A stretch of 64,000 nucleotides of DNA from Escherichia phage RB32: sequence record NC_008515.1. The stretch is one strand, 5' to 3'. The notes beneath the pieces were generated by a model. It was not told the origin of the DNA. It ran no database searches and saw only the letters and a program-made list of their open reading frames with translations. Position 1 is the stretch's first letter. Every line of letters starts with the position of its first letter. The position numbers and the translations under genes are program-made. This document shows positions 39,920 to 62,478 of the stretch, piece by piece.

Positions 39920-40390
39920 TTAATCATGTTTCCACACCCCATCGGTATTTGACCAAAGCCGCTGATTATCTGATCCTCGCCACAGCTTTTTGGTCGGAAG
40001 ATTTTTCTCATACTTCCCATCAATAATAACATCAACATATTTAAGCATTTCTAGTTGTTTAATATCTTCAAACTTATATCCTGTCCACAACCAAATGCTT
40101 TTATTGGGATAAAGATTTTTTACTGTTTGAACAATGCAATGAATAACATCTCGGTTATCAGGATAGAGAGGGTCACCTCCAGTTATAGTCAATCCTTCTA
40201 TATAATCATTATTCAAACATTCAATTAATTGCTCTAGTGTTTCACCAGTGAATGGAATACCATTTCTAGCATTCCATGTTGATTTATTATAACACCCTTC
40301 ACATTTATGCAAACAACCTGTAACGAAAAGAACGGTCCTGCAGCCAGGACCATTAATAAAATCGCAAGGATAAAATCTATCATAATTCAT
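39920..40390 (-). CDS. nrdG: anaerobic ribonucleotide reductase activating enzyme (radical SAM)
   Basis: 156-aa ORF with CLHKCEGC (CxxxCxxC). Confidence 0.9.
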   Translation of the reverse strand: MNYDRFYPCDFINGPGCRTVLFVTGCLHKCEGCYNKSTWNARNGIPFTGETLEQLIECLNNDYIEGLTITGGDPLYPDNRDVIHCIVQTVKNLYPNKSIWLWTGYKFEDIKQLEMLKYVDVIIDGKYEKNLPTKKLWRGSDNQRLWSNTDGVWKHD

Positions 40391-42204
40391 TGGTGTTTAA
40401 CCCTATGCATGATTTCTTTATTTTTGCCGAGATTAAATCCGCGTTCGTTCGGATTTCCCAAATAACCACACGTTCTTCTTATTGTGTTCATCTTTTTAGG
40501 ATCAGTTTCTCCACAAATAGAACAAACAAATCCGTTTTCAGTAGGAGTCATTTCATGGGTACTTCCGCATGTAAAACACTTATCTACTGGCATATTAACA
40601 CCAAAATAATCTAAATGTTGTGCAGCATAATCCCATACAGCCTCAAGACCTTTTAGGTTATTTTTCATATCAGGAAGTTCAACATAAGAAATGTGACCAC
40701 CTGTCGCAATGAAATGATATGGCGCTTCACGAGAAATCTTTTCAAACGGAGTAACATTTTCTTCTACTGAAACGTGGAAACTGTTAGTGTACCAGCCTTT
40801 ATCGGTAACATCTTTTACGCTTCCATATTTTTCTGTATCAAGTTTACAGAAGCGATAACAAAGGTTTTCAGCAGGAGTCGAATACAAACTAAAAGCAAAC
40901 CCAGTTCTTTCAGTCCACTGTTTAAGATGAGCATTCATTTTAGTTAAAATTTCTCGTCCAATATCACGACCGACAAGAATATTCAATTCGTGAATACCAA
41001 TGTATCCTAGGGACACTGAACTTCTACCGTTTTTAAATAACTCAATTATGTCGTCATCAGGTTTAAGACGAACCCCGAATGCACCTTCTTGGTAAAGAAT
41101 AGGAGCAACAGTAGCTTTAACTCCTTTTAAGGAACTAATTCTACACATCAAAGCTTCAAAACACAAATCCATACGTTCATTGAATAATTCAACAAATTTC
41201 TGTTCGTTAAATTGTGTTCCAATATAAGAATCTAATGCAATGCGAGGAAGATTCAGTGTTACAACACCAAGATTATTACGTCCATCAAGAATTTCATTAC
41301 CAGTCGAATCTTTCCATACGCTCAAGAAACTACGGCAACCCATTGGAGAAACAGGAATAGATGAACCGGTGATAGCTTTATTATTCTTAACTGAAATAAT
41401 ATCAGGATACATCCTTTTGCTTGCACACTCTAGAGCAAGCTGCTTAATATCATAGTTCGGATCGTCTTTATAAAGATTAACGCCTTCTTCAACGAACATA
41501 ACAAGTTTAGGAAAAATAGGAGTTATCCCATCACGACCAAGACCTTTAATACGATTTTTCAAAATTGCTTTCTGAATCATTCGTTCAGTCCAGTCAGTTC
41601 CCGTACCAAATGTAATTGTTACAAAAGGAGTCTGTCCGTTTGAACTAAAGAGAGTATTTACTTCATATTCATAAGCTTGGAATGCATCGTATACGTCTTT
41701 TTCTGTTTTAGATTGGGCATAATTCAGTGCATCGGCGATTTGCCATTTTTCTGCGTCCTCGATATGTTTTGCATAGGTGCGTTTAACATAAGGAGAAAGT
41801 ACTTTATCTACATTCGCAAAAGTCGTTCCGCCGTATTGGTGAGAAGCAACCTGTGCGGTAATTTGTGCCATAATTGCAGTAGCAACGCCAATTGATTTAG
41901 GAGTTTCAATCTGCGCATTACCAAGCTTAAATCCGTTCTCAAGCATTCCTTTTAAATCTACTAAACAACAATTAGTAAATGGAAGAGCAGGGGAATAATC
42001 AATATCATGAAAATGAATAATTCCGCTTTCATGCGCTTTCATAATAAAAGACGGGACCTTATTTTTGGCAATGTGTTTAGACACAATACCAGCCATAAGG
42101 TCCCGTTGAGTTGGAAAAACACGAGAATCTTTATTAGCATTCTCGTTTAAAAGGTCTTTATTAGTTTTATGAATCAATCCTTCAATTTCTTTTTCAATTG
42201 TCAT
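40387..42204 (-). CDS. nrdD: anaerobic ribonucleoside-triphosphate reductase (intronless)
   Basis: 605-aa continuous ORF; C-terminal zinc site CFTCGS...CSICG and glycyl-radical motif RRTCGYLG. Confidence 0.9.
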   Translation of the reverse strand: MTIEKEIEGLIHKTNKDLLNENANKDSRVFPTQRDLMAGIVSKHIAKNKVPSFIMKAHESGIIHFHDIDYSPALPFTNCCLVDLKGMLENGFKLGNAQIETPKSIGVATAIMAQITAQVASHQYGGTTFANVDKVLSPYVKRTYAKHIEDAEKWQIADALNYAQSKTEKDVYDAFQAYEYEVNTLFSSNGQTPFVTITFGTGTDWTERMIQKAILKNRIKGLGRDGITPIFPKLVMFVEEGVNLYKDDPNYDIKQLALECASKRMYPDIISVKNNKAITGSSIPVSPMGCRSFLSVWKDSTGNEILDGRNNLGVVTLNLPRIALDSYIGTQFNEQKFVELFNERMDLCFEALMCRISSLKGVKATVAPILYQEGAFGVRLKPDDDIIELFKNGRSSVSLGYIGIHELNILVGRDIGREILTKMNAHLKQWTERTGFAFSLYSTPAENLCYRFCKLDTEKYGSVKDVTDKGWYTNSFHVSVEENVTPFEKISREAPYHFIATGGHISYVELPDMKNNLKGLEAVWDYAAQHLDYFGVNMPVDKCFTCGSTHEMTPTENGFVCSICGETDPKKMNTIRRTCGYLGNPNERGFNLGKNKEIMHRVKHQ

Positions 42205-59857: not shown

Positions 59858-60136
59858 TTATTCTTTAAATCTAATCAATTTATTCATAGACTTTGAAACT
59901 TCTGCACGAACCTCATGTAGATTTTTGAGCTGTTCAAGACGCTGCGTATAGTAAGCAATTTCATCTTCTTCGAGACAGTCCTGTGAATCTTCTTTAAGAT
60001 AACGTGTATAGTCCTGAAAAGCGTTACGAACTACTTCCTGGAAATCATCAAGACTTTGAATTTTCTTAGTAGCAGCAGATACATGACGAGGGGCAGTATA
60101 ATACTCATAACCAAACCCTGCGCTTAATTGAGCCAT
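59858..60136 (-). CDS. hypothetical protein
   Basis: ORF track 59858..60178; internal Met [13 protein letters not shown] gives TAATG-type coupling. Confidence 0.45.
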
Positions 60137-60402
60137 TAGTATTTTTCCTCTGGTTGGAACACTGCACGACAAGCCCACATACTGGCTTCTTTGAGTTTCG
60201 TTTTAGCAATAGTTAACTGATCGAGGCTTTCGGCGTAATTCTTCACGAGTTCATCATCTTCACAATTATCTAGTGCTTCCCAGAATTCATCATACAAAGC
60301 ATCAAAGATAAGTCCTAAACGAACTTCAGCATCTTTGATAGCATTCACTTTACTGATTTTATCGTCAGTATGTGGCTTATAACCTTTAATGTCTTCAATC
60401 AT
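60136..60402 (-). CDS. hypothetical protein
   Basis: ORF track 60136..60438; internal Met at 60402. Confidence 0.45.
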
Positions 60403-60616
60403 ATTTGACTTCCTCACCAGTACATAAATCGTATTCAACTAAACGAATAGGTTCATGAATGCCATATCCCTGAACAGAAATTTCTGTCGTAGGATAAATT
60501 CCGTCAATATCACCCATATTCCACGCTTCATTAAATTGCTGTTCGCCTGAATTACTAAACCACTCGGCGAAAGCATTTAGAACATCTTTAGAACCTTCAA
60601 TAATTATCTTTGCCAT
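60395..60616 (-). CDS. hypothetical protein
   Basis: 73-aa ORF. Confidence 0.5.
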   Translation of the reverse strand: MAKIIIEGSKDVLNAFAEWFSNSGEQQFNEAWNMGDIDGIYPTTEISVQGYGIHEPIRLVEYDLCTGEEVKYD

Positions 60617-60978
60617 TACAAACTCTCGGTGAAGGTACGAGCGATAACGTCGCGCTGCTGTTCCGGAGTCAGAGAGTTAAAGCGAACTGCATAACCGGAT
60701 ACACGGATGGTCAGCTGCGGATATTTTTCCGGATGCTTAACTGCATCTTCCAGAGTTTCACGACGCAGAACGTTAACGTTCAGGTGTTGACCACCTTCAA
60801 TTTTAACTGTAGGCTGTGGCTCAATTTCAATTTCACGGGCATGCAAACCATAGAAAATTTCTGGGTCTACAAAAGAGTCCTCTTTAAAGGTTTTAGAAAC
60901 GATAATTCGTGCTTGAATACCATCTTCAAAATAAATAGTACCTTTATGTGTGCCTTCAAGAATTTGATATGCTTTCAT
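60616..60978 (-). CDS. autonomous glycyl-radical cofactor (GrcA/YfiD-like)
   Basis: 120-aa ORF; C-terminal ...[56 protein letters not shown] carries the RVSGY glycyl-radical motif; 3' half is GC-rich with host-like codons. Confidence 0.8.
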
Positions 60979-60985
60979 ATAAACC

Positions 60986-61315
60986 TCAATTAGAAAATAA
61001 ATTTATCCAAGATTGTTCTTTAATTAAAAATGGCTCAGAATCATATGCCATTAAACTTTGCGTAATTAATCCTTTAAAAGGTCCATCAATAAATTCCATG
61101 GTAAAATATGGAATTTTATTCATTAGCCGTGCATTAGGAGCCGTGCACAAAACTCTGCATCCTTTGAATACACCTTTTTGTAATTTGTATTGCTTGGGAT
61201 AAAATTCGCTCAAAATGTTATTATTTGCTAAAATTTCAAAATGATTCACCAATTTATTTTTAATAGTTTTTGGCGAAAAATAAAGATATTCGAAAAGCTG
61301 AGTGTCTGTCATCAT
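60986..61315 (-). CDS. hypothetical protein (possibly C-terminal part of a frameshifted gene)
   Basis: ORF track 60986..61366; internal Met [10 protein letters not shown]; overlaps upstream ORF in another frame. Confidence 0.4.
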
Positions 61316-62004: not shown

Positions 62005-62478
62005 TTATTTGAATGATTTAACGTACTGAATAGAACCTTTACTATTCACGAAAGCGATTTTACCATTTTTATTATACATTGTAGCAGTACGTTGATAGCC
62101 ATAAGTTTGTTTACCAGATTGATAACCAACTAATGCGAAATTATCTTCACCCATTTTATTCTGTTTAGCGCGAATACGTTCATGACCATGTGCCATAAGA
62201 ACCTTAGCATCACCGGTTGCAATGGATCGACGAGTTTTTTCATCTTCAACTGTATTAACAAAGTCGTCAAATGAATCAAATTTAGCATGAGATTTATTAT
62301 ACAGTTTTCCATCTACTGCATAATTATATCCCTGTACATCCATCTCAACTTCTGTACCATCATCCAGTACAGCAGTGATTTTCTGTCCTTTTTTAAATTT
62401 CAAAAGATCAGTAAAAGATTCAGCAATAATTTGAGAATTAATAGCTGCTTCAGTAATAAATTCTTGATATGTTTTCAT
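62005..62478 (-). CDS. internal protein with capsid-targeting sequence (IP-locus protein)
   Basis: 157-aa ORF starting MKTYQEFITEA, the conserved T4 internal-protein CTS; located just upstream of e as the IP locus. Confidence 0.7.
   Translation of the reverse strand: MKTYQEFITEAAINSQIIAESFTDLLKFKKGQKITAVLDDGTEVEMDVQGYNYAVDGKLYNKSHAKFDSFDDFVNTVEDEKTRRSIATGDAKVLMAHGHERIRAKQNKMGEDNFALVGYQSGKQTYGYQRTATMYNKNGKIAFVNSKGSIQYVKSFK
62177..62209. repeat. 33-bp exact repeat shared with rpbA (30352..30384)
   Basis: cgttcatgaccatgtgccataagaaccttagca occurs in both genes, encoding [11 protein letters not shown] in each. Confidence 0.85.

Follow-up and report, generated by a model that had tools for sequence, protein, structure and literature searches.

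The vs.6 gene and its layout

The 64,000-nucleotide (nt) stretch of Escherichia phage RB32 analysed here (NC_008515.1; the window, below) carries the phage gene vs.6, which encodes a small autonomous glycyl-radical protein of the GrcA/YfiD type and is the ortholog of vs.6 (Y06I) of phage T4. The gene is a mosaic: behind a 5' part of phage type lies a tract of 169 nt that is identical to grcA of Escherichia coli. The locus is laid out as follows.

60616..60978, minus strand: vs.6, phage GrcA/YfiD-type autonomous glycyl-radical protein; open reading frame (ORF) of 120 codons plus TAA
60801..60978, minus strand: 5' part, gene nt 1-178 (codons 1-59 and the first base of codon 60); phage-type, encodes the diverged N-terminal half (N-half)
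60632..60800, minus strand: host-derived tract, gene nt 179-347 (residues 60-116); 169/169 identical to E. coli grcA
60694..60696, minus strand: Gly95 codon within RVSGY, counterpart of PflB G734 and predicted site of the glycyl radical, read from the translation; column invariant in family alignments
60616..60631, minus strand: tail, last 13 coding bases and stop codon; host amino acids kept, phage-lineage silent variants
60984..60987, minus strand: GAGG, resembling a Shine-Dalgarno sequence and placed 5 nt before the ATG of vs.6; a sequence reading with presumed function

Multiple observations bear on the assignment of the gene. Over the 1.9 kb tested, the window is 100% identical to phage RB33 (KM607001.1, Tequatrovirus); the coding sequence at the corresponding position of that record carries the note vs.6, and the gene order vs.8-vs.7-vs.6-vs.5-vs.4-vs.3-regB is that of T4. 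The product is identical to T4 vs.6 at 119 of 120 residues, with Arg73 in the window and His73 in T4. It matches the profile phrog_1209, labelled 'unknown function' in PHROGs, with 210.5 bits (residues 1-120 on profile positions 1-121), and this full-length match, together with the place between vs.7 and vs.5, puts it in the phage vs.6 family, homologues of which are present in 1,587 phage records. The Pfam domain Gly_radical covers residues 61-101 (E = 2.8e-18), the best solved relative is the nuclear magnetic resonance structure of YfiD/GrcA (6owr; E = 8.6e-42, residues 22-120), and in a search of PDB sequences residues 697-759 of PflB align with vs.6 residues 58-120 (E = 5e-26).

In form, vs.6 agrees with GrcA/YfiD, being a stand-alone protein of about 14 kDa that ends in a glycyl-radical module of the pyruvate formate-lyase (PFL) type with the RVSGY motif; by analogy with the family, Gly95 is predicted to bear the radical. 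The earlier note on this DNA had read the ORF as a GrcA/YfiD-like glycyl-radical gene of 120 codons whose C-terminal 60 or so residues resemble GrcA behind a divergent N-terminal part, and it was right on both counts: residues 61-120 are identical to residues 68-127 of E. coli GrcA, and the N-terminal part is divergent. When scored against the NCBIfam equivalog TIGR04365 ('spare_glycyl'), vs.6 reaches 153.3 bits, from residue 20 onwards, which lies below the curated cut-off of 170 bits (E. coli GrcA scores 234 bits). The shortfall arises because the N-half has diverged, and we therefore do not count vs.6 as a GrcA equivalog but as a relative, specific to phages, whose mode of action is probably that of GrcA. 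Annotators should be cautious here, as many records name vs.6 'pyruvate formate-lyase', 'GrcA' or even 'ribonucleotide reductase subunit'.

The gene and its neighbours are packed tightly, in an operon-like fashion. The TGA stop codon of vs.7 lies within or overlaps the GAGG upstream of vs.6 (junction 60984..60992), and the vs.6 stop overlaps the start of vs.5 in TAATG (60614..60618; vs.5 ORF, 60395..60616). Scans for promoters and terminators around vs.6 gave matches at chance level only; no tRNA was found in the entire window and no Rfam family in its 56-64 kb segment.

A sharply bounded tract from the Escherichia lineage

Gene nt 179-347 are identical, at 169 of 169 positions, to the grcA allele of E. 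coli SK1144 and lie one base off the K-12-like allele; they encode the glycyl-radical module ([11 protein letters not shown]...RVSGYAVRF...ARTF). With blastn, gene nt 179-363 match grcA in all 5,426 of 5,426 complete E. coli genomes (96.8-97.3% identity, E = 2e-81). Directly upstream of nt 179 the similarity to grcA collapses, the 5' part has no nucleotide match in these 5,426 genomes, and the maximum chi-square breakpoint falls at gene nt 178/179 (chi2 = 117, reached in 0 of 2000 permutations). A megablast comparison of the entire window with the same genomes returned a sole match, 60612..60800, to grcA and, more weakly, to pflB.

The composition of the tract is likewise that of the host. Its guanine plus cytosine content (GC) is 49.7%, against 34.4% in the window and 34.3% in the 5' part of the gene, where GC at third codon positions (GC3) is 0.20. 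It is the GC-richest 169-nt stretch in the window: the segments of this length with equal or higher GC, 23 of 63,832, all overlap it (z = 3.7). Tract GC3 is 0.43, compared with 0.24 on average and at most 0.30 in the 50 long ORFs of the window. All five of its leucine codons are CTG (9% in phage ORFs), and all three of its proline codons are CCG (15%). A gene-conversion tract derived from the host should be nearly identical to the host gene even where changes are silent, begin abruptly and be host-like in composition inside a phage-like gene, and these marks are combined here.

At the downstream end, all five final sense codons of vs.6 differ synonymously from the host, the first of them straddling the tract boundary, and tail positions 348, 351, 354, 357, 358 and 360 vary with the phage background, not with the host. 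Tails in Tequatrovirus backgrounds form a nested series of 3' end points, represented by the window phage, the phage loci L106 and L105, and T4. The T4 gene resembles that of the window in its locus between vs.7 and vs.5, in length and in its mosaic structure, its last 186 nt sharing 97.8% identity with E. coli grcA, including an uninterrupted match of 138 nt; it differs in that its host-identical run ends at nt 356, whereas that of the window ends 9 nt earlier, at nt 347. The silent differences from the host in the final five codons fall where the ribosome-binding region of vs.5 would be.

To identify the donor, we compared the tract with grcA from two E. coli strains, K. pneumoniae and 80 further species, estimating synonymous divergence per synonymous site (dS) by the Nei-Gojobori method over a 56-codon core. 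Core dS from E. coli is 0 (0 of 42.8 silent sites) for the window phage, T4, Aplg8 and RPN187. The corresponding values between E. coli grcA and its relatives are 0.43 for Citrobacter amalonaticus, 0.60 for K. pneumoniae and 1.15 for Salmonella. Thus, the donor belongs to the Escherichia lineage and the transfer is very recent. In a neighbour-joining tree of the core, the Tequatrovirus and Mosigvirus tracts fall inside the Escherichia clade (282 of 300 bootstraps). Furthermore, host grcA is universal in E. coli, does not differ in composition between its two halves and has diverged in keeping with the enterobacterial species tree, so that the direction was from host to phage. We also considered PflB and TdcE as donors; the nucleotide identity of their genes to the tract is only 75-81%, and neither is the source. 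The GC-rich, host-codon 3' half that the earlier note placed at about 60616..60800 was located accurately to within the 16-nt tail. Moreover, two of the checks that the note put forward, a sliding GC and codon analysis and an alignment with host grcA, bear out its mosaic with a recently captured host segment: composition is not uniform, tract GC exceeds that of the rest of the window and tract GC3 that of its long ORFs, and the alignment combines elevated identity with the breakpoint and the zero core dS given above.

The 5' part tells an older history. Profiles of the N-half built from 12 diverse phage homologues and 12 host GrcA proteins align with each other in hhalign over all 59 columns (probability 97%, E = 9.8e-11, 25% identity), and the phage-type N-half is conserved from T-even to T5-like and jumbo phages. 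On this evidence the N-half is an anciently diverged, phage-specific homologue of the GrcA N-half, which makes vs.6 a full-length member of the GrcA superfamily; with the two N-halves homologous, the mosaic is a homologous replacement inside an old phage gene and not a fusion. A fold search with the modelled N-half returned nothing significant, the only matches being weak and KOW-like (template modelling score about 0.24), from a vs.6 model of moderate quality (mean predicted local distance difference test score, pLDDT, 73.9, with linker residues 58-69 below 50). The module of the same protein, as modelled, superposes on the PFL C-terminus with 2.1 A over 52 columns.

Tract age, phage background and host

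The age of the tract in E. coli phages is uncoupled from the age of the phage DNA around it. Between the window phage and the Mosigvirus RPN187, an E. coli phage of another genus, identity is 70.9% in vs.7, 87.1% in the 5' part of vs.6, 169/169 in the tract, 68.8% in the 16-nt tail, 69.7% in vs.5 and 68.0% in vs.4; at silent sites, dS is 0.50 in the 5' part and 0 in the core (Fisher p = 4e-6). The phages JK45 and O157 typing phage 13 stand near RPN187 in the 5' part (dS 0.06-0.09) and further from it in the core (0.10-0.16). Silent changes in the tract relative to E. coli number six in JK45, four in O157 typing phage 13, two in ph0021 and none in RPN187.

The mosaic is shared by Klebsiella phages of the genus Jiaodavirus, in which GC3 is 0.17-0.19 in the 5' part and 0.56-0.58 in the 3' part, the 5' junction lies at the same codon, and the last codons carry phage-specific variants, including Ala for Ser. 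In phage Shinkou, the tract has 96.0% identity to grcA of K. pneumoniae, 92.0% to that of K. aerogenes and 86.9% to that of E. coli, and KPV15 (IMG/VR locus L130) matches K. pneumoniae grcA at 98.2% of positions in the core, 140 nt being identical without interruption. The two residues that distinguish the E. coli and Klebsiella modules (LEDAVKH versus LLDAVEH) follow the host. Klebsiella grcA sequences were taken from two PLSDB records, of which that of K. aerogenes (LR134122.1) is frameshifted and served for blastn identity only. PLSDB files as plasmids what are a 5.37-Mb K. pneumoniae chromosome (L099, CP125156.1) and pieces of a K. aerogenes chromosome (L100, LR134122.1).

The phage collection contains 504 records with at least 95% identity to the E. 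coli tract and 77 with 95-99% identity to that of K. pneumoniae; a full-length host grcA occurs in none of its phages. Neither was a Salmonella-type tract found in any phage, the best band, at 90-95%, holding three records and the full-length matches among those listed having 83.8-84.3% identity. A candidate Yersinia-type tract (L133) was rejected, being a complete bacterial grcA inside an IMG/VR 'viral' contig. Other lineages have no recent host tract: core dS is about 0.9-1.1 in Karamvirus CC31, Slopekvirus and Pseudotevenvirus, and it is saturated in Krischvirus and in the T5-like, Aeromonas and jumbo phages. Exact runs shared with any sampled host reach no more than 12-29 nt in these unconverted lineages, versus 35-175 nt in the converted genera.

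Two further groups of homologues deserve mention. Six IMG/VR contigs of 33-154 kb from human oral and Human Microbiome Project (HMP) metagenomes (L123-L128), belonging to a phage group of about 150 kb, encode a vs.6 homologue of about 130 residues whose module is closest to grcA of Haemophilus parainfluenzae (80-87% identity). One of them, L125, has a 53-nt exact run to that gene and four mismatches in nt 94-171, versus 9-14 in its relatives, a pattern that is suggestive, but no more, of partial conversion by the grcA of a third host genus. T5-like Demerecviridae of E. coli, Salmonella and Klebsiella (L094, L095, L096; positions 1501-1869) also carry a vs.6 homologue, which in the examples from E. 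coli and Salmonella lies embedded among tRNA genes (the Klebsiella record has no RNA annotation) and has no recent host tract, its core being about 72-77% identical to any host, with saturated dS. These records name it formate acetyltransferase, 2-ketobutyrate formate-lyase or ribonucleotide reductase subunit.

Two observations concern the neighbourhood of vs.6 in the window. The vs.4 gene (60136..60402, minus strand) lies two ORFs downstream of vs.6, and in the close relative 215Ecol030PP a feature under the 1.9-kb match is annotated 'anti-CBASS protein 2'; this protein, Acb2, we take to be T4 vs.4. Upstream, a single ORF noted Ip4 (62005..62478, minus strand) stands between vs.8 and the lysozyme gene e, at the place where T4 (L098, 4940-6416) has denV, ipII and ipIII, a local swap of gene content between very close phages.

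Origin and role of the host-like module

We infer that the module is acquired by recombination in the infected cell, where homologous exchange between phage DNA and host chromosomal DNA (gene conversion) would overwrite the 3' module of vs.6 with grcA. Pairing would require a similarity between the two genes that exists only between the EGGQHL codons and a point just short of the stop codon, and the patch would be confined to this stretch. T4 infection breaks the host DNA into fragments, homologous recombination is very active in T4 (UvsX/UvsY, gp46/47), and markers are routinely rescued into this phage from cytosine-containing plasmids across short homologies. The grcA-like module is the sole usable host homology in the window and therefore the sole place for such recombination. 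Because conversion patches must end within the homology block, this mechanism would explain why the 5' limit is always found at the EGGQHL codons and why phage-type bases are kept at codon 60 and in the last few codons; and since the phage kills the donor, the flow would be one-way. A host-like copy would then be the best substrate for the next conversion, whereas a copy that has drifted beyond pairing range would escape, which would give two states among the lineages.

As for the role of the protein, PMC8683613 relates, after Wagner et al. (2001), that T4 Y06I, once activated by PFL activase, restores the activity of oxygen-cleaved PFL; this is the repair activity that the earlier note had attributed to the T4 protein, which is one residue apart from that of the window, and to this extent the source agrees with it. 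By analogy with the T4 ortholog, the C-terminal module of vs.6 in the window phage would mimic the last 63 or so residues of host PFL, the host PFL activase (PflA) would install a glycyl radical on its RVSGY loop, and the radical-bearing protein would dock on PflB whose radical loop has been destroyed by oxygen, restoring activity. On the simplest reading, vs.6 would thereby keep host fermentation working under fluctuating oxygen once the host can no longer make GrcA.

Taken as a whole, an old phage gene of the GrcA family whose 3' module is repeatedly overwritten by host grcA, and whose product serves in PFL rescue, is the best explanation of the data and, in our judgement, probably the correct one. 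With respect to the repetition as such, we favour, with rather less assurance, recurrent conversion from host to phage with some phage-phage exchange on top. We further hypothesize, giving equal weight to its being right or wrong, that continuing one-way gene conversion from host chromosomes keeps the radical module of lytic T-even phages in step with the current host. The companion proposition, that a pairing-competent copy is overwritten faster than it drifts and that lineages past the pairing range escape for good, has in our view an even chance of being true.

Several alternatives have to be weighed against recurrent conversion. That the host 3' half was captured once, in the common ancestor of Tequatrovirus and Mosigvirus, and preserved by purifying selection acting even on silent sites is favoured by the 5' junction and the Ile codon 60, which are common to all E. 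coli-type phages, and by the very strong constraint on the protein sequence of the module. Such selection would, however, have had to suppress every synonymous change in 42.7 sites next to a 5' part with a dS of 0.36-0.50 and flanking genes about 70% identical, although host species under equal constraint differ at 14-25 silent sites; moreover, tract divergence does not scale with flank divergence. Silent changes are evidently tolerated in JK45 (6), O157 typing phage 13 (4) and ph0021 (2), and a single ancient capture kept by selection therefore does not fit; we regard it as very unlikely. Somewhat less so, if still improbable, is that one or very few captures from the host were followed by spread among co-infecting T-even phages through phage-phage homologous recombination. 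T-even phages recombine freely, the identical 169-nt block is a good substrate for recombination, and the 5' part of JK45, a phage classified as Tequatrovirus, is Mosigvirus-like, a sign that exchange does take place locally. Yet exact ends at the limits of host homology, on both sides, are not expected from such spread in backgrounds that are 70% identical, the separate K. pneumoniae-type tract of Jiaodavirus is left unexplained by it, and the tracts stay identical to the living host allele with no joint drift away from it. It is scarcely conceivable that the tract is an assembly artefact due to merged host reads or that the gene segment moved from phage to host. Host DNA does contaminate phage preparations, and nothing more specific speaks for an artefact; the tract recurs in over 500 independent records of phages, the classical T4 sequence among them, its junctions are always in frame and its tail variants are phage-specific. 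Transfer from phage to host is at odds with a grcA that is universal in E. coli, has the same composition in its tract-homologous part as elsewhere and diverges along the enterobacterial species tree.

A different alternative concerns function. The earlier note had extended the logic of PFL repair to the anaerobic ribonucleotide reductase of the phage itself, NrdD, which is encoded, together with NrdG, elsewhere in the window.

40387..42204: NrdD, encoded in the window
39920..40390: NrdG, encoded in the window

On this reading, vs.6 would replace the glycyl-radical part of NrdD after cleavage by oxygen, and NrdG might be its activator. Gene neighbourhoods in distant phages lend it some colour: Aeromonas phage PX29 (L097, 1-3447) has the order nrdD-nrdG-vs.6-nrdC-nrdH, with the start of vs.6 overlapping the end of nrdG, and in the Yersinia jumbo phage fHe-Yen9-04 (L091, 1-1157) a single ORF separates nrdD from vs.6. 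The arrangement in these two phages could equally stem from an 'anaerobic module' or mean that NrdG activates vs.6 there. An earlier genome paper (PMC1524935) had likewise guessed that the gene acts in nucleotide metabolism. The sequences give the idea no support, the C-terminal module of vs.6 showing no detectable resemblance to the glycyl-radical region of NrdD: BLASTP against the NrdD of the window yields E = 2.7 and leaves its motif RRTCGYLG unaligned, and the PDB sequence hits at E <= 0.01 include no NrdD chain, in contrast to the strong match of PflB 697-759. Furthermore, the module is copied from host grcA, a part of the PFL type, and vs.6 lies 18 kb from nrdD and nrdG in the window. 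We consider repair of NrdD a highly improbable role.

Several considerations weigh against recurrent, host-tracking conversion and its link to PFL rescue. Part of the apparent recurrence could be exchange of tracts between co-infecting phages and not fresh copying from the host. Host-allele signatures in the phage tracts were sought and rejected: sites 219 and 282 vary in hosts and phages alike, and the overlap is not above chance (p about 0.15). Matching to the host is no general rule, since a Salmonella-type tract was not found in any phage, and the split uniting K. pneumoniae with Jiaodavirus is recovered in only 140 of 300 bootstraps. Most conversions are synonymous, and conversion may be a neutral by-product rather than an adaptation. 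In addition, the score of vs.6 under the GrcA equivalog cut-off means that a function identical to that of GrcA is not guaranteed, and we know of no in vivo phenotype for any vs.6 mutant.

Known systems and implications

The gene, its family and its in vitro activity, which for T4 is textbook-level, are already known. A full-text literature search found no report of the vs.6 nucleotide mosaic, of host-matched tracts or of uncoupling between tract and background; key older papers lie outside that search, and a prior mention of the mosaic in the older literature is possible. Among known proteins, the closest parallel is E. coli GrcA (YfiD), the spare part for oxygen-damaged PflB, which is likewise small and stand-alone, has an identical module and an N-half homologous at the profile level. 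In contrast to GrcA, vs.6 has an N-half that is about 25% identical and seven residues shorter, belongs to a separate family (phrog_1209) and has a 5' half of phage composition. The C-terminal domain of PflB and TdcE is alike in fold, and vs.6 lacks the catalytic barrel of these enzymes.

A parallel for the DNA event is offered by the psbA/psbD mosaics of cyanophages, which Zeidner in 2005 and Sullivan in 2006 reportedly described as the outcome of intragenic recombination between host and phage in an auxiliary metabolic gene. The two cases share a lytic T4-type phage, a homologue of a host metabolic gene, and parts that are host-like in sequence and composition. Unlike psbA/psbD, vs.6 has a patch of 169 nt with sharp limits set by homology, which is identical to a living host allele and is matched to the host in two genera of enterobacterial phages.

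In the vs.6 tract, a strictly lytic coliphage has taken up host DNA, presumably by homologous recombination, within limits that follow the extent of homology; the case is very clean and can be put in numbers. Given host-matched versions in two genera and a tract age uncoupled from the background, recurrent conversion is directly testable in T4, which is the best genetic system available for this question. The tract could also mark the recent host genus of a T-even lineage. If continuing conversion from the host is indeed at work, the tract would record the genus, Escherichia or Klebsiella, in which a phage lineage has recently grown, and virulent phages with modified DNA would undergo recombination with the chromosomes of their hosts in nature at a rate sufficient to homogenise a segment of 170 bp. 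Under the same premise, conversion may keep the spare part compatible with the PflA and PflB of the host.

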